21,548 nucleotides of DNA, taken from assembly GCA_028282585.1 (NCBI GenBank), contig JANQHR010000155.1:1-21548 (forward strand), written 5' to 3'. The stretch comes from Bacteroidales bacterium. Lineage in GTDB: Bacteria; Bacteroidota; Bacteroidia; Bacteroidales; UBA12077. A program made the position numbers and the translations under genes. The notes beneath the pieces are model-generated. The model searched no databases. It saw nothing but the letters and a program-made list of their open reading frames with translations, and was not told where the DNA came from. Every line of letters starts with the position of its first letter. Position 1 is the stretch's first letter. Below, one piece after another: positions 1 to 10,002 of the stretch.

Positions 1-625
1 TCTTATCATCTTGAAATTACATCAAACCACAACCTCGCTCATGCCAGGCGGAAATCTCGAAATGTTTCTTATCATCTTGAAATTACATCAAACCACAACC
101 TTTTTTCGTTTAATTTTGCATCAATCATGTTTCTTATCATCTTGAAATTACATCAAACCACAACATTCGTATTCTGAACATCCGTTACAAATTGGTTTCT
201 TATCATCTTGAAATTACATCAAACCACAACGCGCTGACATTTTATATATGTTTAAGAGGTGTTTCTTATCATCTTGAAATTACATCAAACCACAACTGGT
301 AAAATATGCAAAAACTGAAAATGCCAGTTTCTTATCATCTTGAAATTACATCAAACCACAACTTTAAAATAGTAAATAATTAAATAAATGTAGTTTCTTA
401 TCATCTTGAAATTACATCAAACCACAACTTTCCTGTCAACCAAACATTTATCCTATCTGTTTCTTATCATCTTGAAATTACATCAAACCACAACTTAAAG
501 AATGTGATAAAGTTTTAGATATTGGTTTCTTATCATCTTGAAATTACATCAAACCACAACTAACACTTTATATAGTTGATAAAACAGGAGTTTCTTATCA
601 TCTTGAAATTACATCAAACCACAAC
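1..625 (-). CRISPR. Type II-C CRISPR array, 36-bp repeat GTTGTGGTTTGATGTAATTTCAAGATGATAAGAAAC (minus-strand reading); truncated by the window edge
   Basis: Identical repeats at 1-33 (partial), 64-99, 129-164, 195-230, 261-296, 327-362, 393-428, 459-494, 525-560 and 590-625, separated by nine unique 29-30 bp spacers. Orientation is inferred from pairing of the minus-strand repeat 5' end with the tracrRNA anti-repeat. Confidence 0.99.
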
Positions 626-786
626 CTGGGTCGATATAAGCCTTATTTTATAGCTATTCAGCACTAAAAACACGCTTATTTTCTGTATATCTAATCCACA
701 GGAAGTAGTTTTGATATTCAAAATTAAGATTCTAATTCAGAATTCAAGCAATTTTTTATCAATATTTCAAAGAACTTTCTAATATT
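626..786 (-). promoter_or_regulatory. CRISPR leader with a candidate Bacteroidota sigma-A promoter
   Basis: AT-rich non-coding stretch between the cas2 stop and a perfect terminal repeat. Minus strand has TAATTTTG (TAnnTTTG -7 box) at 726-719 and TTG 18 nt upstream (747-745), pointing into the array. Confidence 0.7.
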
Positions 787-1125
787 TTAAAATATCTCAA
801 GCTGTTTTGGTCCTTCGGGCAAAGGCTTTTCTTTTATTCCCCAAAAGTTCATAATATCTCCATACTGCTTATCAGTAATTCTTAAAATACTCACCTGTCC
901 CTTTTCCGGAATACACGATTTTATTCTTTTAGCATGAACTTCTCCACTTTCCTTACTGGCACAATGCCTTATGTAAACCGAATATTGCATCATTGTAAAT
1001 CCGTCTTGCATCAAATCTTTTCGAAAACGGGCAGCAGCTTTTCGCTCTTTTTTAGTATTTGTAGGTAAATCGAAAAAAACAAAAAGCCACATAATATGAT
1101 ATGCATTTAACCGGTTATGTTTCAT
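787..1125 (-). CDS. cas2: CRISPR-associated endonuclease Cas2
   Basis: 112 aa with WLFVFFDLPT (catalytic Asp), FRKDLMQDGFTMMQYSVY and ITDKQY motifs; lies between cas1 and the array. Confidence 0.98.
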   Translation of the reverse strand: MKHNRLNAYHIMWLFVFFDLPTNTKKERKAAARFRKDLMQDGFTMMQYSVYIRHCASKESGEVHAKRIKSCIPEKGQVSILRITDKQYGDIMNFWGIKEKPLPEGPKQLEIF

Positions 1126-1127
1126 AT

Positions 1128-2018
1128 TTATATAATTCCAGGAAACTCAATCTGTTTTTTGGTACCTGTAAAGCACCCGGCTAAAGATGCCGTAGTATTT
1201 GTAATAGCTATCATTAATGGCCGTGTTTGCTTTTTCATAGCAACATCCGATGATAGTATTTCTAAGATTTCAGCCTTAATTTCTTTCTCAACCGTATCCG
1301 TATCGGGATATTTTTGACAAATATCCCATACAGCTATATCAACAAAAGGCCGGTATGGTTCCATCATATCATCAGCCAGGCAAAATGCGTTATACCGGTT
1401 GCTGTGGAAAATCCCAAAGGATGGCAATAAACCTGAACCGGTTAAAGCTCTTGCCACTGCTGCGCGTAAAATAATATATCCATAATTTAACAATGCATTG
1501 GGCCATTCTCCATAACGCTCGCGAGTAAAATCTTCTCCAAATAGCTTTTTCCAGTACAACCGGGCTGCCATTCCTTCCCGGTTATCTGTATCGCCACTTT
1601 TAACTTGCCTGGATAAATGAGGCAATGGATTTGAATCCAAGTTCAATTTATTAAGCACTTTAGCCTGGTTCTCAATTTTAGCCACAACGGTTTGCTTCCA
1701 TAAATTCTTTTTCAGCGGTTCGGAAGCTGCAACCTGATGCCTGTAAATCTCGGTTTGCTGATGGTTGCCTTCCATATTGATCAACATGGATTGAGGATGA
1801 TGTTTAGAATTGCAAAAAATGATGGCTACATTATTATTCATTAACTCGCTGATTAATGGCATACTTAACGTAATTTGCATATGCTCTATTACCATGAACC
1901 CAATATCTTCAATCGGTACTGTTTTAGCTTGGTTTTCATTATCCATTTCAACTACCAACTGCTTATTTCTAACAGACAAATAACTAGGCTTTGTAAAATA
2001 TAATGTTCGTTTTAGCAT
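1128..2018 (-). CDS. cas1: Type II CRISPR-associated integrase Cas1
   Basis: 296 aa; VPIEDIG, SGDTDNREGMAARLYW, NALLNYGYIILR, GIFHSNRYNAFCLADDMMEPYRPFVD. Catalytic E/H/D residues are present. Confidence 0.98.
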   Translation of the reverse strand: MLKRTLYFTKPSYLSVRNKQLVVEMDNENQAKTVPIEDIGFMVIEHMQITLSMPLISELMNNNVAIIFCNSKHHPQSMLINMEGNHQQTEIYRHQVAASEPLKKNLWKQTVVAKIENQAKVLNKLNLDSNPLPHLSRQVKSGDTDNREGMAARLYWKKLFGEDFTRERYGEWPNALLNYGYIILRAAVARALTGSGLLPSFGIFHSNRYNAFCLADDMMEPYRPFVDIAVWDICQKYPDTDTVEKEIKAEILEILSSDVAMKKQTRPLMIAITNTTASLAGCFTGTKKQIEFPGII

Positions 2019-2065
2019 ATCAATTTAGATTAACAAATTGTTTAGTTTTAAGTGTTCTTGTTTTT

Positions 2066-2098
2066 AGTCTCGGCGTGTCTTGAAGACACGCCGAGACT
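2066..2098. repeat. REP-like palindrome copy 1 (downstream of the transposase)
   Basis: AGTCTCGGCGTGTCTT-G-AAGACACGCCGAGACT: perfect 16-bp arms, GC-rich in an AT-rich background. GGAG overlaps the 5' foot on the minus strand (2100-2097). Confidence 0.9.
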
Positions 2099-2153
2099 CC
2101 TCTAAAAATGACTGTGCCTGATCTTTTATTAATATGTGTTTAAACATATCAGT

Positions 2154-2768
2154 TTAGATTAAAAGGTTATCCATTTCGATGTATTGTTTTGCAACCTTCT
2201 TATTTAGAAGCGTTCCCTTACGTATACCCAGGTAATCTTGCGAAGAAGAAAACTCCCAATCTTCAGCCTTTTTTACTAAGCCTGCATTTACAGGATTATC
2301 ATGAATATACTTAAAGCAAACCTGAGGATATCCTTGCAACTGACTATTAATCTTAGTGCCATATACTGTCTTATAAAACGATGGAGTTATTCCATTTGGA
2401 CAGTTAATACATTCGGCTTTTGTTGCTTCCCTGAATAGTTTTCCTGTTCTGTTATATTGTTTATTAAATGCTTTGGTGTATCCCATCAACATAATACCAA
2501 TTGACTCATTAAGGGTTCTATGAGACTCAGACTCGGTGTGTCTCAAAGACACACCGAGTCTACTTACCGGCAAACTCACTTCATGAACCAACACCATTAA
2601 ATGAAAGTGATTAGGCATTAAGCACCAGGCCAGAATATCGGAGTAAGAGGTAATATACGTTTTTATCTTTTTTAAGAAGAATAAGTAATTTTCTTTGTTT
2701 AAGAATATCTTTTCGCGGTTATTCCCCTGATTATAAATGTGATATATGTAACCCTTTTCAAATTTCAT
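2154..2768 (-). CDS. HUH/Y1 tyrosine transposase, REP-associated (RAYT/TnpA-REP-like; IS200/IS605 superfamily)
   Basis: 204 aa; YHIYNQGNN N-terminus, AWCLMPNHFHL (HUH motif), RTGKLF, and KYIHDNPVNAGLVKKAEDWEFSS (catalytic Tyr plus the NP-AGLV-W-SS tail typical of RAYTs). No tnpB is adjacent. Confidence 0.92.
   Translation of the reverse strand: MKFEKGYIYHIYNQGNNREKIFLNKENYLFFLKKIKTYITSYSDILAWCLMPNHFHLMVLVHEVSLPVSRLGVSLRHTESESHRTLNESIGIMLMGYTKAFNKQYNRTGKLFREATKAECINCPNGITPSFYKTVYGTKINSQLQGYPQVCFKYIHDNPVNAGLVKKAEDWEFSSSQDYLGIRKGTLLNKKVAKQYIEMDNLLI
2529..2561. repeat. REP-like palindrome copy 2, inside the transposase coding sequence
   Basis: AGACTCGGTGTGTCT-CAA-AGACACACCGAGTCT: perfect 15-bp arms, encoding RLGVSLRHTES in frame. 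GTAG overlaps the 5' foot on the minus strand (2563-2560). Confidence 0.9.
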
Positions 2769-2802
2769 GTTTTACTTTTTTATTATTCTCGGCCTCGGTG
2801 TT

Positions 2803-2835
2803 ATTCTCGGCGTGTTTTAAAAACACACCGAGAAT
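2803..2835. repeat. REP-like palindrome copy 3 (between the cas9 stop and the transposase start)
   Basis: ATTCTCGGCGTGTTTT-A-AAAACACACCGAGAAT: 16-bp arms with one mismatch (a G.T wobble on the minus strand). Partial arm copies sit at 2783-2801. Confidence 0.88.
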
Positions 2836-2848
2836 GTATTTCAGCATA

Positions 2849-5800
2849 TTATATCTTTTCAATTTGACCTAACACATTTATTTTAAAATCATAATTTTCA
2901 ACTAAAGCATTAAATTTACTTAACGATATTATTAACTTTGCATGAGGCTTTTCATAATTAATAGTGCTTGATGGTTTTTCTTGCTCTTTATCGGGTCTTG
3001 CTTCAAGGTGGTATCTCAATTTTACCCTACCATCATCACCTCTAAACCCATATATTTTATAAAGCCTTTTCTGAATATTAGTTTGATTATTTTCCCAAAT
3101 TTCTTCAACACTATCTTTATAAAAAAGTACAAATGTTCCAATTTTTAATATCCACTTTAATTTAAATATTTTCCCTTTTATTTCTTTTGAATCTTCTGAC
3201 ATTGGATACATTCGAGAAAACCCTTTATTGCTCCTTTTATAATAACTAGCTGCCATCAAATTATTAAAAGGTTCAAATGTTCTTAATAATTTTCCTTTTG
3301 CTTCAAATTCATATATAGCTAACGCATAATTTTCATCATTTCCTACAATTATTTCATTTTTATACCTTTGTGTTTCTTTTGACATATCCTTATGCCTTTT
3401 TAAAGACAAAGCTCCTTTTAATCCGAATTTACAACGTACTTTTTTAATAGGATTTACTTTTTTTTCTCCGATATAGAAAGGTTTTGAAAACATTTCTTTC
3501 AATCCTATTTCTTTTGCTTTTAGCTTTGCTTTTTCTCGAATTACATCATCTACAATTTTTTCTAAATCATCAATTTTTGAAAAACCTCTTTCTCCATATT
3601 CAAAAGGTACTCTTTTTACATGAAACAGTTCATCTTTTTGGGTTTTCTTATTTTTTATGCAATCAATATATCCTTCTTTATCAAATATAATTTTACCATT
3701 ATTGTCTTTTTTTGGAAGCCTTATTCTTCCATAATAAGATTCATTATGCAAACTTCCTCTAGCTGTATCTCCTTGCTGATAAATAACCTCTCCTTTCTTA
3801 TTAAATTGTATCTTACCTCGTTTCCTTAGCTTCTTTTTAGCTTGTTTTGGCAAACTATCAGGAGTATAATGAGAAACCAAAATTTCTTTTTCGATTTCTT
3901 TAATGTCTTCAGTAAAAGTAGGCCATGGTTTTGTAACCTGTGGTTTTTTATCACTTCCTGAAATAAACATTTCCTCTGAGTCGTGATAAAACTTTGCCAA
4001 ATTCTCATAATTCTGCTTGGTAATGCAAGCAATTGTTATTGCATCTATACAATGATGAATATGATTTACTCTTGCTTTCTTTTCATATTCATCTTGTAGC
4101 CCCCATAATTTTCTGAAATCAGCAACTGTATTACCTTTAACAGTATAAACTTTATTGAATAAGGTTTTAAGATATAAACGAGAATATTTAGTGATTATAC
4201 CTATATCAACCATCTGACTATTTTTAAATCCGGATGGAATATCTTTCATTGTAAATCTTTCATACTTTCCTTTCCAATAATCTCTTTCTATAACTAATTT
4301 ATGTCTACGCTGAATTGCAAAATCTTTTGATTCTTTTGTTACCGATGTTCTTGATTTTCTTACCTGTATTTGTATTTGTTTATCAAGTTCTTCATATTTC
4401 TCTTTCCATTTTTCAATTCTCGCAAGAATATCATTGTGATTTGCTAATTCGGTTGGTATTTTGTTTCGTTTAATATCTCTGTTAAACTTATTTTGGCAAA
4501 GAGTTTTGTTTTGTTGTGAATTATCATAAGATAAACTACGCGGTATTGTATGTTCTATATCAAAAGATGGATTGTTACCTAAAAAGTCCGATATTCCTAT
4601 ACTATCGCCTGTGTAAATACATTTGTGCTCCTGTTCTTCCCACAACTGATATTTTAAAATGTCTGCTTCTGAAGGTTCTCTTTTTACTCCAGATGAATCA
4701 AAATGTTCTTTTATTCTTGCATAATAATCTTTATGCAGGTTTTCACGGTCACGCTGCCAACTTTGCAAAGCTTTGCGCTCGTTTGCATTTTTAAGATCAC
4801 GTGACATTTCAATATTTAATTTCGTGTTTTCATCAACCAAGTCTTGTTTAATTAATTCATTAATCAATTTTCGAAGCTGATGAAGCGCACGCATAGCCAT
4901 TGGGTTTCTAACACTTGAAACCATTGGGCTACCCAAATATTTTCGACCATCTTCAGCTCTTTTAGGTTGCTTAAAAACTTCAATTGCAGAAGGATGATAA
5001 AGTTGTTCTAAATTTTCTTGGTTTGTATCAAAATTATCTTTTAAGAAACTTTTTACTCTCTCATCAATTGTTTCAATTTGCAAGAAACCAGATTTACCGT
5101 TTTGTTTTTGAATTTGTTCTTTGAATTGATTAAGTGCGCTATGAACTATATCATTTTGGACTTCTAGTGCTAATTTATTCCAACGATTTGTTCCAAATAC
5201 AGAAGTGATATTTTTTTCAATATCTTTTTTATATTGTTCTTTAGCTTCTTCACTCCAAAACCATTTATTATCTTTACACTTCTTAATTAATCCGTTAACG
5301 ACTTCAACAATTTGTTTTTCTTGATTCTGATTTTGAATTATCTCAAGTATCTCCGTTTGTATTATTTTTCTATTCTCTTCCAGATTCCATATTTCTTTAG
5401 AAATTGCATTTCCCATATTTGCCAAGAATATTGCATGAGAGTAAATCAAGCCTTCACTCAAATAAGGCAACACTTTTTTTATTGCTTTTAAACTAAGTGA
5501 ACCATAATCATGTTTTAAATGAATATTATTTGTAAACTCTTTTAATTTTTCATCTTGTAAGCCAAGTTTTTCTTTTGCAAATTCAGTTAATTTTTCTACA
5601 CTATCGAATGTATATAGTACGTGCCATACATCGTAAATATCAATAAATGATTCTTTTCCATCAAGCTCTCTAATATGTTTAATTTTAAACTCTTTCCAAT
5701 TTTCTCCAAAAACACTTTCAAATCGAGCAGAAACAGGGCAACCACTTACAGTAGTTTTCATTGAATAGTTGAAAAGATAATCTTCAGGATGCTTCAAACT

Positions 5801-6808
5801 TGCTTTATAAAACTTATATTGATTTTTTGGAGCTAGTTGTTTTGCAATATCTTCAAAATCGAAATGTTCTTTACTTTTTCTATAAAACAAAGGCCTGATT
5901 TTAACTTTCTCTTGTTGATTTAAGAACCTTAATTTTTCATCGTCTGGGGTCTTAATTTTAATATTGTTTACAAAACAAAGCATTCTATATTCTTCAAATA
6001 ACGGATGAGAAGAAGAACATCGCTGTTTGTTTTTTTCAAATGGGCACTTTCCTATCAAACCCTTTTGTGACTTTAATGGACGTTGATAAAATATTGCTTT
6101 TTGGATAGATTTTTTAATTGATGAACTAATCTTTTGTTTTTCGCAAATTTCGTTGAACTCTTCTAAATAATGATCTTCTCTATGAGTATATTGGTTTCGA
6201 ATTTTTGTACCCGTATTATATTTTTCATAAAAGTACTGTCCTATTGTTTTATTTCCTTTTAATTCAGTTAACTCTGATATTGCTTTTTTTATAGCTCCAT
6301 CACTTTCCTTTGTTCCTTCTAGTCGGTTACTTAAAAATCCCCTTCTCTGTGCTAAATGATAAAAAGCTCTGCCTAATTTATATCTGTTTTCTTTTGTTGA
6401 TAAATCAAGTATCTCTGTTACGGCAAGGTTTCTAAAGTAGTATGGGTTTTTATTTATTCTATCATCTGTGGATAGCCACTTTCTGAATTCTTCATTTGTC
6501 GGATATACTTTTTTATATCTCCAATCATTTAACTCTTGCTCTGTTAGTTTAGGACAATAATTATGTTTTATTAGTACTTTAAGCGTACTTATTTTTCTTA
6601 ATTTACGCCTGTATTTTAGCCTTCTAGCACTCCTATAATTTGTTCTTTCTTCTGCTTTAGAACCTTCTATACCTTTTTCAATTTTTACCCCTTCTTGAAA
6701 TATGTGTACTCCTTTTTGAAGTAAATCAAACTGTTTGTTATTGGCTGTTTCCACAACAGCCCAGCCAATACTGTTAGTACCAAGGTCTAATCCTAAAATT
6801 TTACTCAT
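2849..6808 (-). CDS. cas9: Type II-C CRISPR nuclease Cas9 (large Bacteroidota type)
   Basis: 1319 aa; RuvC-I ILGLDLGTNSIGWA, Arg-rich bridge helix RSARRLKYRRKLRK, RuvC-II NIEMSRDL, HNH DIEHTIPRSLSYDNSQQNKTLC, RuvC-III HIHHCIDA. No csn2 or cas4 in the operon, so subtype II-C. Confidence 0.99.
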   Translation of the reverse strand: MSKILGLDLGTNSIGWAVVETANNKQFDLLQKGVHIFQEGVKIEKGIEGSKAEERTNYRSARRLKYRRKLRKISTLKVLIKHNYCPKLTEQELNDWRYKKVYPTNEEFRKWLSTDDRINKNPYYFRNLAVTEILDLSTKENRYKLGRAFYHLAQRRGFLSNRLEGTKESDGAIKKAISELTELKGNKTIGQYFYEKYNTGTKIRNQYTHREDHYLEEFNEICEKQKISSSIKKSIQKAIFYQRPLKSQKGLIGKCPFEKNKQRCSSSHPLFEEYRMLCFVNNIKIKTPDDEKLRFLNQQEKVKIRPLFYRKSKEHFDFEDIAKQLAPKNQYKFYKASLKHPEDYLFNYSMKTTVSGCPVSARFESVFGENWKEFKIKHIRELDGKESFIDIYDVWHVLYTFDSVEKLTEFAKEKLGLQDEKLKEFTNNIHLKHDYGSLSLKAIKKVLPYLSEGLIYSHAIFLANMGNAISKEIWNLEENRKIIQTEILEIIQNQNQEKQIVEVVNGLIKKCKDNKWFWSEEAKEQYKKDIEKNITSVFGTNRWNKLALEVQNDIVHSALNQFKEQIQKQNGKSGFLQIETIDERVKSFLKDNFDTNQENLEQLYHPSAIEVFKQPKRAEDGRKYLGSPMVSSVRNPMAMRALHQLRKLINELIKQDLVDENTKLNIEMSRDLKNANERKALQSWQRDRENLHKDYYARIKEHFDSSGVKREPSEADILKYQLWEEQEHKCIYTGDSIGISDFLGNNPSFDIEHTIPRSLSYDNSQQNKTLCQNKFNRDIKRNKIPTELANHNDILARIEKWKEKYEELDKQIQIQVRKSRTSVTKESKDFAIQRRHKLVIERDYWKGKYERFTMKDIPSGFKNSQMVDIGIITKYSRLYLKTLFNKVYTVKGNTVADFRKLWGLQDEYEKKARVNHIHHCIDAITIACITKQNYENLAKFYHDSEEMFISGSDKKPQVTKPWPTFTEDIKEIEKEILVSHYTPDSLPKQAKKKLRKRGKIQFNKKGEVIYQQGDTARGSLHNESYYGRIRLPKKDNNGKIIFDKEGYIDCIKNKKTQKDELFHVKRVPFEYGERGFSKIDDLEKIVDDVIREKAKLKAKEIGLKEMFSKPFYIGEKKVNPIKKVRCKFGLKGALSLKRHKDMSKETQRYKNEIIVGNDENYALAIYEFEAKGKLLRTFEPFNNLMAASYYKRSNKGFSRMYPMSEDSKEIKGKIFKLKWILKIGTFVLFYKDSVEEIWENNQTNIQKRLYKIYGFRGDDGRVKLRYHLEARPDKEQEKPSSTINYEKPHAKLIISLSKFNALVENYDFKINVLGQIEKI

Positions 6809-6849
6809 AACCGTATATTTTTTCTATTATTCTTTTCTACTGATTACCA

Positions 6850-6905
6850 TAAATTTAAGAAAACTTACAATTACTTTCAATTTTTTACATTTTTTATTAA
6901 ATTTG
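6850..6905. promoter_or_regulatory. Divergent candidate promoters for cas9 (minus) and tracrRNA (plus)
   Basis: Minus strand: TTG (6880-6878), 20 nt, TAAATTTA (6857-6850). Plus strand: TTTC (6875-6878), 19 nt, perfect TAAATTTG (6898-6905) just before the anti-repeat. Confidence 0.55.
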
Positions 6906-6908
6906 ATT

Positions 6909-6982
6909 ATTACATCTTATCACAATAAGGCTATATGCCGAAGGATGTAAATCCTATACTCCTGCTTCGGTGGGAGTTTTTT
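6909..6982 (+). ncRNA. tracrRNA
   Basis: ATTACATCTTATCACAAT (6909-6926) pairs with the first 18 nt of the minus-strand repeat (14 Watson-Crick, 2 G.U, and a 2x2 U-U loop). It is followed by nexus AAGGCTATATGCC, hairpin AGGAT-GTAA-ATCCT (6942-6955) and terminator ACTCCTGC-TTCG-GTGGGAGT plus a T-run (6958-6982). The 5' end is approximate. Confidence 0.9.
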
Positions 6983-7138
6983 AATTAAGAAAGTGCTATT
7001 AATAAAATAACAGATACCTTTGAAGGTAGTAAAAAGAGAATAGGTAAGATGCTTTTTGCTTTATTGCCGCCACTTTGATAAGGCTTTGCTTAAAGGTTCA
7101 GTGAGACTTAACAACCACAAAGGAATGTTTTAGCTATT

Positions 7139-7921
7139 TTATTCTCCACCATACCAGGCTTTAAAATCGGAAACTTTTTCGCGGCTTACAATAATTTCTT
7201 TTTCGAATTCGTGCGGAAATTTAACTCGTAAACGACTTGTTGAGTACACTACAACATCGGTAATATGATCGAAATTAATAATAAAGGAACGGTTTGCTCT
7301 AAAAAATTTTTGAGGATCCAATTGATTTGTTAATTCTTCTAAAGTACTATCAACAATAAATTTTCTGTTTTCGTTGGTTATAATAAAAACAGTTCGGCCT
7401 TCGGCATAAAAAAAGTAAATATCATTAACCGAAATGGACTTTATGTGCTCTCCTATTTTAACTAAATAGCGATTTTTGTACTTCTGACTTTTTCCTGAAA
7501 TTAACTCTGCTAATTTTTCCAACGTAACATTCGTTTGTGTTATTTCCTCAGACGGCAAATTAGCACGCATGCTTTTAATTTTATCCATTGACTTGGATAA
7601 GCTTTCAAAACTTAGAGGCTTTAATAAATAATCAATGCTGTTTAATTTGAAAGCATCAATAGCATATTCATTAAACGCTGTAGTAAATATGATAGGTTTC
7701 TCAACTTTAACCGATTTAAAAATATCAAAACTTAAACCATCGGTTAACTGAATATCTAAAAATATTAAGTCTATATTTTGCTGATGATTTTTTAGATAAT
7801 TAACGCTTTTTTCTATGGTTGTTAAAATAGATAAAACTTCAACTTGGGGATCATATTTTTTTAACAACAGTTCTAACTTTTCTGCTGCTGGCTTTTCATC
7901 TTCTATAACCAATACTTTCAT
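7139..7921 (-). CDS. LytTR-family two-component response regulator
   Basis: Receiver domain VIEDE...LIFLDIQL...IIFTTAF...YLLKP; LytTR domain with FFRANRSFIIN and VSREK. Confidence 0.96.
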   Translation of the reverse strand: MKVLVIEDEKPAAEKLELLLKKYDPQVEVLSILTTIEKSVNYLKNHQQNIDLIFLDIQLTDGLSFDIFKSVKVEKPIIFTTAFNEYAIDAFKLNSIDYLLKPLSFESLSKSMDKIKSMRANLPSEEITQTNVTLEKLAELISGKSQKYKNRYLVKIGEHIKSISVNDIYFFYAEGRTVFIITNENRKFIVDSTLEELTNQLDPQKFFRANRSFIINFDHITDVVVYSTSRLRVKFPHEFEKEIIVSREKVSDFKAWYGGE

Positions 7922-7925
7922 CTTA

Positions 7926-8960
7926 TTAATCTTCTATTTTTAAAACCGGTACTTTATAAATTCTCACTCCATCTAACTCCGAAATTGAAAAAGCTTTTCC
8001 ATACTGTTTGTACGCTTTCTTCAAATGATCAATTTCAGTATTTTTAGCAAGAACCTGTATTAATTTATTTCTGATGGGATGCGATATTTCAAGAAAGTCA
8101 TTTATAACCTTTGAGTCAATACTCAAAGGTTGAATTTCAGAGACAATGGTTCTGTTAACAATATCTTCGATAATAACCACTAATGTTCCTCCGACAACTT
8201 TCTGAAATGGCTCAGCATCTTTATCATTAATATTAAATTTTAGGTTATTATGTAGTTTATAATTGAATATATTAATTAAAGTATTTACAATCTTAAACTC
8301 ATCTTCAATTTTTACCGGATCGCTATTTTTGGTTGAAAGAACATTCCTGTATACTTCCGATAATTTAAGAATAAATTTGTCTGCTTCGCCAACATCCTTT
8401 TTTGAAAGGCTGATTAAAGTTTCCAAACTATCATAAAGGAATTCAGGATTAATCTTATTCTTATAGGTATGCAATTCTATTTCAACACCCTGACGTAGGA
8501 TAGCTTCCTTATCTAATAAACTTTCATTCGTTCTATTCAGATAAAAAAAACTGAAATAAACCATATTATATAATATACTTGTTATCAGAAAAATGGTATT
8601 AAAAACAGTCAACTCATGTCTAAATGTATTAAATCCCACCAGCTTTGAAAAATAGAAGGAAATAATTAAAGATGTAATTATTACCGTGATTATCAAACTT
8701 CCTCCTCCCTGGATTATAAGTCTTCTCGAAATACTGCAATTAGCAGAACACCTTTTCTCAACTTGTAAAATATACAATCTTATTAATTCAAAAATTAGGT
8801 AAGTAATAACTACGCATAAAGTGGCTTCTATTACTAAAAAATTTTCTGATAAATCCTGAACTCTATCAAAAATTAATAAGATAAGTATATACATGGTAAC
8901 TCCATAAAAAATTGGAGTAAAAATCCTGAAAACTGCGCTGTTTATAATATTCTTAACCAT
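7926..8960 (-). CDS. LytS/YehU-like membrane histidine kinase homologue, probably catalytically inactive
   Basis: About 4 N-terminal TM helices. H-box reads INPEFLYDSLE instead of NPHFLFNSLN; N-box is degenerate (IIEDIVNR) and no GxGL box is recognisable. Confidence 0.8.
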   Translation of the reverse strand: MVKNIINSAVFRIFTPIFYGVTMYILILLIFDRVQDLSENFLVIEATLCVVITYLIFELIRLYILQVEKRCSANCSISRRLIIQGGGSLIITVIITSLIISFYFSKLVGFNTFRHELTVFNTIFLITSILYNMVYFSFFYLNRTNESLLDKEAILRQGVEIELHTYKNKINPEFLYDSLETLISLSKKDVGEADKFILKLSEVYRNVLSTKNSDPVKIEDEFKIVNTLINIFNYKLHNNLKFNINDKDAEPFQKVVGGTLVVIIEDIVNRTIVSEIQPLSIDSKVINDFLEISHPIRNKLIQVLAKNTEIDHLKKAYKQYGKAFSISELDGVRIYKVPVLKIED

Positions 8961-10002
8961 TTTTACCCGGCTTTAAAAGTGGGAGTTCAACTTTAAAATA
9001 ATCATCCTTTATAACGCTGATCTTTTTATCAGTAAAAACCTGATATCTCTGTCGAATATTACTTAATCCTATTTTAAAAGATTCTCTGTGCGATGGAGCT
9101 TTTAATATTCTATTTTTAACATATACTATATCATTCGTTGCAATTATGTCAACTTCCAAAGGTTGATCATCATCAAAAACATTATGTTTGACCGCATTTT
9201 CAACCAATATCTGAATACTAATCGGAGGAATTAAATTTTCCAATAAACTAGTATCAATATCGATATGAGTTTTAAATGCTTTTCCAAAACGAATTTTCAA
9301 TAAAAAACAATAATCCTTAACAAATTCTATTTCTTCTTTTAAAGTTATTAATTGCTTTTTATCTGATGCCAGAATATATTGATACGTTTTTGCCAGCTTA
9401 CGAATATAATCTTCTGTTTGATCCGCATCTTTATAAATTAATGATGATATTGTATTTAAACTATTAAACAGGTAGTGCGGACTAAGTTGTGTTTTTAATG
9501 CTTCAAACTGCAACTGCATTTGCTTACGTGCCAATTTTGCATTTTGTATTTGGCCGTAAGAATAATACTTATAAGAATAAATTAAAAAGTCGAATACAAC
9601 ATATAAAATATCTAAAATCAAAATGAGAATATACGCTCTTATCTTAATTTCATTATATTCCTCAAGTAATGCTTTAAAAGTATAATTCAGTTGGTTTAAC
9701 CTTAAGTAGACCCAAATGAATAGTGCAACCAAAATAAAAATAGAGACATAATTTATAATAATTCCGAAAACAAACCTAAATCCGATCTTTTTTCTCCAGA
9801 ATGGAATTTTATTCAAAAGAGAATTAATTAAAATTAAAGTTAACCCGATAGTATTTGCTCCTATTACAAGGAAAGTAATTAAAACCCAATCTTTAGAAAA
9901 TACAGGAAACTCCCCGAGCTCACTATAATATAAGTATGAATATAGAACCAATCCCAGGATTGTATTTATAAAAAAAGCGGATATGATTTTTCGGATTTGC
10001 AT
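8953..10002 (-). CDS. LytS/YehU-like membrane sensor histidine kinase
   Basis: About 4 TM helices; ALKTQLSPHYLFNSLN H-box, IPPISIQILVENAVKHN N-box, KIGLSNIRQRY G-box variant; overlaps the next gene by 8 nt. Confidence 0.93.
   Translation of the reverse strand: MQIRKIISAFFINTILGLVLYSYLYYSELGEFPVFSKDWVLITFLVIGANTIGLTLILINSLLNKIPFWRKKIGFRFVFGIIINYVSIFILVALFIWVYLRLNQLNYTFKALLEEYNEIKIRAYILILILDILYVVFDFLIYSYKYYSYGQIQNAKLARKQMQLQFEALKTQLSPHYLFNSLNTISSLIYKDADQTEDYIRKLAKTYQYILASDKKQLITLKEEIEFVKDYCFLLKIRFGKAFKTHIDIDTSLLENLIPPISIQILVENAVKHNVFDDDQPLEVDIIATNDIVYVKNRILKAPSHRESFKIGLSNIRQRYQVFTDKKISVIKDDYFKVELPLLKPGKNG

Follow-up and report, generated by a model that had tools for sequence, protein, structure and literature searches.

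In the type II-C CRISPR-Cas locus of a Bacteroidales bacterium (GenBank assembly GCA_028282585.1, contig JANQHR010000155.1), the cas9 and cas1 genes are separated by a 204-aa gene for a single-tyrosine (Y1) nuclease of the HUH (histidine-hydrophobic-histidine) type, which is accompanied by three near-identical DNA hairpins. The stretch analysed, hereafter the window, is the whole contig of 21,548 nt (C35 of the 173-contig, 4.9-Mb assembly G000; 98 % completeness). In our estimation the chances are about even that the gene and its three private hairpins make up a hairpin-nuclease cassette, conserved yet open to exchange, which is carried along in the operon as a replaceable passenger and not as a fixed component of immunity. 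Judging from comparative sequence data, the gene is real and selected, with intact catalytic residues, and is neither a fresh insertion nor a co-evolving Cas subunit.

The nuclease gene and its hairpins

As described in the initial annotation of this DNA, all elements of the locus lie on one strand, the minus strand, in the order cas9 (2849–6808; 1319 aa; Pfam RuvC_III, HNH_4 and Cas9_a above threshold), hairpin, Y1 gene (2154–2768), hairpin, cas1 (1128–2018; Pfam Cas_Cas1, 115.8 bits), cas2 (787–1125; Pfam CRISPR_Cas2, 69.5 bits) and CRISPR array (1–625). The last of these comprises at least 10 repeats of 36 nt with unique spacers of 29–30 nt, its first repeat being cut by the contig end. The interval 2019–2848 is exactly the gap from the cas1 start to the cas9 stop. 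Two further claims of that annotation, that tnpB is missing and that the Cas catalytic motifs are intact, agree with our results: no tnpB-like family was found among the 14 large window open reading frames (ORFs) scanned, Cas1 retains E148, H205, D216, D217 and E220, which are invariant in 67 Cas1 sequences, and Cas9 retains the N-terminal Asp of GLDLGT, DIEH...N in the HNH match and NHIHHCIDA in RuvC-III, stretches that we take to be its catalytic motifs.

Two family profiles scored the Y1 protein below their thresholds (Pfam Y1_Tnp, PF01797, 21.7 bits for a cut-off of 23; NCBIfam REP_Tyr_transpos, NF047646, 54.4 bits for a cut-off of 80). Using a profile of 91 homologues, a single solved relative was identified, Escherichia coli TnpA_REP (4ER8; E-value 6.9e-6), for which PMC3479197 gives H59-M60-H61 as the metal-binding motif and Y115 as the catalytic tyrosine. 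The HFH at residues 54–56 aligns with the former and Tyr154 with the latter, in support of the earlier statement that the HUH motif and catalytic Tyr are intact. Over the 91 sequences H56 is invariant and H54 is present in at least 90 %, and Y154, N158 and P159, which belong to a YIxxNP helix, are again invariant. A further metal ligand of 4ER8, H123, aligns with Ala162 of the window protein; type A, as we named the Y1 type of the window, has Ala at this position (NPVxAGL), and the B-type proteins found at other loci retain His (NPIHHGF or NPVxHGF). An AlphaFold2 model of the protein was obtained with a predicted local distance difference test score (pLDDT) of 91 and a predicted template modelling (TM) score of 0.85, its sole weak block being residues 71–80 (pLDDT 56), a surface loop encoded by the internal hairpin described below. 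The top Foldseek match of this model was 4ER8_A (E-value 8.4e-7; TM score 0.57 by query and 0.69 by target; 16 % identity in the fold alignment), followed by the TnpA proteins of IS608, IS200 and ISDra2. Profile, alignment, model and fold match together place the gene in the class of TnpA_REP, also termed RAYT (for repetitive extragenic palindromic (REP)-associated tyrosine transposase), and predict an intact nuclease/strand-transferase that would act on hairpins in single-stranded DNA.

A single intact close copy of the gene is present in the genome, with no identical copies; besides it there are one paralogue with an open frame of 206 aa (45 % identical) and four short fragments, of which three contain stop codons (paralogue and fragments at C10:9359–9820, C45:8158–8361, C45:44531–44686, C10:31501–31671 and C14:8166–8312). 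No perfect palindrome of the kind seen in the window occurs near any of these five.

Around and within the gene are three near-identical palindromes of 33 nt. The upstream one, between the cas9 stop and the Y1 start (2803–2835), has one non-Watson–Crick G-T/A-C position and folds with −14.2 kcal/mol (z −6.4); the internal one (2529–2561; −17.5 kcal/mol, z −7.3) lies in frame at codons ~70–80, between HUH and Tyr; and the downstream one, between the Y1 stop and the cas1 start (2066–2098; −19.7 kcal/mol, z −8.3), is a perfect palindrome with a stem of 15–16 bp. The two outer hairpins are the flanking palindromes already reported in the initial annotation, in which the internal copy was absent. 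When the three were folded as single-stranded DNA, 0 of 200 shuffles were as stable. None is followed by a T-run, which rules them out as intrinsic terminators, and as the cassette is co-oriented with the operon and without terminators it is most likely transcribed with it.

No further copy of the hairpin exists in the 4.9-Mb genome, nor does the genome contain any palindrome family, its 72 perfect GC-containing palindromes all being singletons. With only three copies, all at this locus, there is therefore no REP population for the enzyme to serve, and the earlier label 'REP-associated' holds as a family name but not as a description of this genome. The triplet of upstream, internal and downstream hairpins is similarly confined to the CRISPR locus in two related genomes (G008 and G009, 3/3 copies each) and has three of its four copies there in a third (G023). 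As such, the gene and its three private hairpins may be viewed as a minimal 'REPtron' cassette placed in the cas9–cas1 junction.

A hairpin with a 15-bp stem was found at codons 50–95 in 62 of the 89 non-redundant homologues of the protein-anchored sample introduced below. Four stem pairs are near-invariant over these 62 hairpins (T-A and C-G beside the loop, A-T at the foot and, at position 6, T-A); at most of the remaining stem positions there are two to four types of Watson–Crick pair, with pairing in 58–62 of the 62, and one position is paired in only 40. Hairpin copies are usually alike within a locus and different between loci. With regard to the foot, at which a conserved 5' GT[AG]G tetranucleotide is characteristic of TnpA_REP hairpins, GTAG was present at the internal hairpin only (1/3, reading the gene's own strand, minus, alone), and A[CG]T feet are conserved instead.

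Recurrence and turnover at the cas9–cas1 boundary

In order to follow the slot between cas9 and cas1 among close relatives, we compared 12 genomes with a Cas1 at least 73 % identical to that of the window (referred to as the genus set). The type A gene is carried by 8 of the 12, intact and in the same place in six (G000, G008, G024, G023, G009 and G020), interrupted in one (G021) and across a contig break in one (G014); the slot of G019 holds another Y1 type (C), and in G002, G015 and G006 it is empty, with cas9 ending 5–12 nt before cas1. Sister genomes in which cas9 directly abuts cas1, named in the initial annotation as a sign of an incidental insertion, thus occur in part (3/12). The Y1 orthologues are 61–77 % identical in protein, and are found at the same slot in at least five other species, where they have diverged to a synonymous divergence (dS) of > 1 under purifying selection. 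The ratio of non-synonymous to synonymous divergence (dN/dS), a calculation that had been proposed earlier, gave a median of 0.14 for the Y1 gene, or 0.095 without the loop, versus 0.057 for cas1, although these values are rough as dS is saturated (> 1). In the interrupted copy of G021 (locus L112, 2349–2657), Y1 residue 50 is followed, just before the HUH motif, by a 310-nt insert with an ORF for a GIY-YIG nuclease of 87 aa (Pfam, 54.8 bits), and L036 has the end of this small gene downstream of its Y1 gene.

A wider sample was anchored on Cas1 and comprised 80 loci (Cas1 53–86 % identical). Directly upstream of cas1 there is a Y1 gene in 46 of these, of type A in 12 (3 partial), B1 in 21, B2 in 11 and C in 2; cas9 abuts cas1 with intact genes and no hairpin in 21, and the slot has other content in 13. 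The filling of the slot in 46/80 of these loci and in 8/12 of the genus set bears out the earlier claim that the gene is not a one-off recent insertion. In occupied loci the Y1 gene is located a few to ~150 nt from cas1, and it is co-oriented with cas1 in all 76 non-redundant cases. NCBIfam REP_Tyr_transpos matched 29 of the 34 slot ORFs scanned, at 44–71 bits and always below its cut-off. Profile searches of six-frame translations, with E-values up to 0.01, revealed no decayed Y1 gene in the slots classed as empty or other, and hairpins were likewise missing from these slots except in a pair of loci with identical Cas1 (L190/L191). Among the slots with other content, that of L179 (1691–2350) holds a DUF6261 gene (94.5 bits) and no Y1 gene, and 12 further loci have cas9–cas1 gaps of 360–1200 nt without a recognizable gene.

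The view from the protein is different in scope. For a sample anchored on the Y1 protein (the best 80 of 534 confirmed), non-redundant full-length homologues number 89: 42 are in the cas9–cas1 slot with the strand in common, 31 evaluable ones are located elsewhere and 16 are unjudgeable. Hence, the idea that close homologues sit at random loci, which the initial annotation had tied to an incidental insertion, applies to the 31 of 73 evaluable homologues at non-CRISPR places and fails for the 42 of 73 that are in the slot. The hosts belong to many Bacteroidota families, with Cas1 down to 44 % and Cas9 down to ~25 % identity. Copies of the family outside CRISPR loci sit between ordinary or housekeeping genes with the same hairpin layout, and some of these sites are conserved within a lineage. 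When the sample was anchored on type B (the best 80 of a longer list), 9 were near cas genes, 8 of these in the slot, and 71/80 were outside CRISPR loci; with only 9 of these best 80 near cas genes, the wider Y1 family is therefore mostly non-CRISPR. Three members have unusual surroundings. In L080 (1–2812) a type A homologue is located between a Cas3 C-terminal fragment and cas6b in a type I-B-like locus. In L096 (6001–9075; Flavobacteriaceae) the Y1 frame stays open across its downstream hairpin and continues as a PIF1-like helicase that has HRDC and HTH_40 domains, giving a 1025-aa ORF, and L097 (Flavobacteriaceae) has a similar ORF of 1028 aa; the pairing of a Y1 nuclease with a Pif1 helicase in one protein is reminiscent of Helitrons.

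We next placed the state of the slot on a Cas1 tree of 109 loci (FastTree), counting changes over 97 labelled loci; these counts are not of independent events. Slot state proved to be clustered yet labile, with at least 12 changes of presence or absence and at least 19 changes of state. Turnover can be seen between very close modules: L180 carries type B1 and L183 type B2 although their cas1 genes are 92 % identical in DNA, and in L029 and L035, which have near-identical Cas1, the Y1 genes are 80–92 % identical before the internal hairpin and 47–80 % after it, as in a mosaic. In L183 (1440–1830; a Sunxiuqinia elliptica record) a 104-codon B1 remnant is followed by a hairpin and then by an intact B2 gene, and the intact B1 gene of L180 is in a sister species. 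A single cas-linked Y1 clade was not supported, as the Y1 tree, which is poorly resolved, mixes CRISPR and non-CRISPR copies, with at least 15 changes on 73 labelled rows.

In the window itself, the junction composed of the Y1 stop, six bases and the cas1 start is duplicated as an 18-mer at 2016–2033 and 2145–2162 (one mismatch; 0.01 chance matches expected). On the minus strand, copy 1 (2145–2162; 1 mismatch) holds the Y1 stop and a vestigial cas1 start, followed by ~18 nt resembling the cas1 5' end, and the start codon in use for cas1 lies in copy 2 (2016–2033; 0 mismatches). Between the copies are 111 nt that include the downstream hairpin. An extra hairpin-bearing unit of 129 nt was gained directly before cas1. 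A possible cas1 5' remnant directly after the cas9 stop (2833–2847, minus strand) is marginal (z 3.1). Such remnants were significant in only 2 of 40 loci, L029 (z 8.9) and L035 (z 6.3), and their lengths are unequal, at ~37 nt (window, by reading), ~47 nt and ~70 nt, and a fixed-length target duplication, whether by a transposase or by Cas1–Cas2 integration, is therefore rejected as their common mark. They would be read more simply as the outcome of homologous recombination on one side and an illegitimate joint on the other. The duplicated junction had been offered as an argument against a one-off recent insertion; the duplication is real, but it is a rearrangement specific to this lineage.

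Explanations for a recurrent nuclease gene in the operon

If the cassette is a swappable passenger, the cas9–cas1 junction of Bacteroidota type II-C loci would be a recurrent landing and exchange site, at which cassettes, with four or more Y1 types among them, arrive, are lost and take one another's place between near-identical cas1-cas2 modules, with break points near the hairpins and at the conserved 5' end of cas1. The enzyme would bind its hairpins in single-stranded DNA and use Tyr154 and the metal bound by HUH to nick and rejoin beside them; in concert with ordinary recombination among CRISPR loci, this activity would keep the hairpins alike and move or exchange the cassette. The cassette might then persist because it is itself under selection, or because of a benefit unconnected with Cas1/Cas2, and it would travel with a locus that is frequently exchanged. 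We infer that the enzyme itself may drive the exchange events. The region of cas9 directly beside the Y1 slot looks hypervariable from its sequence: the last ~290 codons (2849–3720) are without DNA-level homology to any genus locus compared, occupied or empty, and the remaining cas9 is 66–81 % identical to the genus loci. A larger unit, in which cas1, cas2 and the array would be Y1 transposon cargo with a hairpin beyond the array, was ruled out by G008, a complete genome with its three hairpins around the gene only.

Several observations weigh against the passenger reading or limit its reach. No movement or excision product was seen, and there is one intact copy per locus; contigs from three DNA runs of one study consisted of the source contig plus pieces from relatives, and none had a joint that removes the cassette. 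The empty sites carry no hairpin or Y1 trace, and the final ~215–245 nt of cas9 are different as well when L129 (occupied) is compared with L121 (empty); gain and loss may therefore be plain allelic replacement, and not Y1 chemistry. Moreover, the loci are related and the samples pattern-based, such that the counts overstate independent events, most loci derive from metagenome bins, and the dN/dS values carry the saturation mentioned above. Finally, the passenger model alone leaves unexplained why four Y1 types converge on one slot despite Cas9 proteins only ~25 % identical, why the orientation is constant, and why purifying selection acts in a genome without other hairpins. Slot convergence, fixed orientation and purifying selection would fit a function for the operon, and to a function in or for it, split between a role in adaptation and a transcript role of the hairpins, we assign about one chance in three.

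In the first form of such a function, a type II-C variant would have recruited the gene as an accessory, and the Y1 protein would assist Cas1–Cas2 (and Cas9) during adaptation, for instance by making prespacers from single-stranded or hairpin-bearing DNA that it nicks or trims, in the position that Csn2 and Cas4 occupy in II-A and II-B. Consistent with this are the filling of 46/80 Cas1-sampled loci by a gene that is always co-oriented and near cas1, the convergence of at least four Y1 types on the slot, the invariant catalytic residues and dN/dS of ~0.1, the lack of any other hairpin copy in the genome for the enzyme, and the retention of the Y1-cas1-cas2 block in L030, L034 and L036 with very different cas9 genes (25–40 % identical). 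Nevertheless, comparing the divergence of Y1 with that of Cas1, as the initial annotation had suggested, gave a distance correlation (Spearman) of just 0.22–0.24, and of 0.21 for Y1 and Cas2, versus 0.89 for Cas1 and Cas2 in the same loci. Beside cas1 genes that are almost identical there are different Y1 types or no Y1 gene at all, 21/80 related and 3/12 genus loci are empty with intact genes, and 31/73 evaluable close homologues and 71 of the best 80 type B homologues are outside CRISPR loci. Slot copies are also sometimes broken (L112, L161 and the L183 remnant), and the constant presence in a defined group of loci that marks a cas gene was not found (46/80; 8/12 genus loci plus one with type C). 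As such, a recruited accessory gene, one of the two possibilities raised in the initial annotation, fares poorly, and we regard it as unlikely, albeit the strongest of the alternatives to a passenger. A broader and more speculative proposal, which we hold to be doubtful, is that Y1 nucleases are an undescribed optional module of Bacteroidota type II-C systems, recruited several times independently to the cas9/cas1 boundary, where they would feed or trim prespacers, or drive cassette exchange beside the hypervariable Cas9 C-terminus and so speed the shuffling of effector and adaptation modules.

Alternatively, the hairpins could be the selected part, serving as intercistronic stem-loops that, in the cas9-Y1-cas1 transcript or in DNA, set the Cas9 : Cas1/Cas2 ratio or protect the message, with the Y1 gene kept to maintain them. 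REPs do act as intercistronic elements in some operons. Here, stable hairpins stand at both gene junctions, the missing T-runs make read-through possible, structure is kept by paired changes across 62 loci, and the extra 129-nt hairpin unit of the window was gained before cas1. Speaking against this explanation, the third hairpin is inside the coding sequence and is found at the same codon in non-CRISPR copies too, so that the layout belongs to the Y1 family and not to cas operons, and the empty loci have no junction hairpin. Its probability is accordingly rather low.

An incidental, recent and one-off IS200-like insertion, tolerated as no cas gene is broken, would explain why cas9 abuts cas1 in sister genomes, why close homologues exist elsewhere in genomes and why the family is related to IS200/IS605 transposases, but it is already contradicted by the comparative data and we give it almost no credence, given slot orthologues in at least five other species with dS > 1 and purifying selection, 46/80 related loci filled, a single intact close copy with neither tnpB nor identical copies, and an enrichment in the slot, a constant co-orientation and a set of four Y1 types that far exceed what it predicts.

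Known relatives and further features of the window

Protein class, REPtron layout and a hairpin within the gene have all been described before (PMC3479197, PMC8266576 and PMC6006769). The window gene resembles the E. coli TnpA_REP/RAYT 'REPtron' (4ER8; PMC3479197, PMC8266576) in its Y1 HUH fold, in having the HUH motif together with one catalytic Tyr placed in a YIxxNP helix, and in its flanking cognate hairpins, single intact close copy and lack of tnpB. It differs in its 16 % identity and its scores below the Pfam and NCBIfam cut-offs, in the absence of genome-wide REPs, in Ala162 in place of H123, in a GTAG foot at only 1/3 hairpins and in its location inside a cas operon. A further parallel is TnpA_REP subclass 2.4, which PMC6006769 (Quentin, 2018) describes as abundant in Bacteroidetes and ~194 aa long, with, as its hallmark, a REP hairpin in frame between HuH and Y, in a variable peripheral loop, and with the motifs NH[IFV]H and YIxNNP. 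The window gene shares the in-frame hairpin between HuH and Y, and its NHFH fits the first of these motifs, whereas its YIHDNP, and the YIHQNP of its clade, do not match the second exactly and resemble the motif of subclass 2.6, a comparison made by published motifs. Neither 'CRISPR' nor 'cas1' occurs in the main text of PMC6006769. Hairpin-guided cleavage and joining of single strands is established chemistry of the IS200/IS605 family (PMC3479197). The TnpA proteins of that family (IS608, ISDra2 and IS200; 2VJV, 2XMA and 2F4F) belong to the same fold class, but their elements occur in multiple identical copies, have left and right ends that are distinct from each other and often carry tnpB, whereas the window has one copy, three near-identical palindromes and no tnpB.

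Among CRISPR-Cas systems, csn2 (II-A) and cas4 (II-B) are the fourth genes that define their subtypes and are required for adaptation. The Y1 gene is similarly an extra gene in a cas9-cas1-cas2 operon beside the adaptation genes, but unlike csn2 and cas4 it is present in part of the close loci only, is of several unrelated types and shows no co-divergence with Cas1/Cas2. Our literature search returned no account of a gene of the Y1/RAYT kind located between cas9 and cas1 in the texts it reached, although supplementary tables (e.g. those of 10.1101/270033 and PMC6006769), which were outside the search, could list one.

RAYT/TnpA_REP genes are usually seen as immobile single-copy genes with no known role beyond serving genome-wide REP hairpins, a population that the window case does not have, occupying instead a fixed place in a Cas9 operon; over half of the sampled related loci have the same slot filled, by Y1 genes of four types. 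Either hairpin-nuclease cassettes favour the cas9–cas1 boundary as a place of shelter and exchange, or the CRISPR-Cas9 systems of this phylum have an optional and untried fourth gene. If true, the former would offer new insight into how 'domesticated' genes persist and move and into the recombination of CRISPR modules. Both readings are directly testable because cultured carriers exist (for example the Sunxiuqinia, Mariniphaga, Gaoshiqia and Saccharicrinis records of the Cas1-anchored sample). For annotation purposes, Y1 genes in this slot are not evidence of a CRISPR locus disrupted by an insertion sequence.

With respect to the remainder of the window, the spacers gave no full-length match elsewhere in the genome or in any compared locus, and none targets its own genome or the cassette. 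Rfam returned nothing relevant for positions 1–8000, and a sigma-70 promoter scan, which is uninformative for Bacteroidota, gave 41 sites versus 30.6 expected. A trans-activating CRISPR RNA (tracrRNA) within the cas9–cas1 gap was ruled out, as the best anti-repeat-like match is upstream of cas9. There, a likely tracrRNA gene lies divergent from cas9 on the plus strand (6890–6985), with the anti-repeat-like stretch at ~6890–6925 and a terminator-like hairpin with a T-run at 6958–6985. Adjoining the CRISPR locus on the minus strand (7139–10002) are a LytTR response regulator gene and two tandem sensor genes of the His_kinase family.

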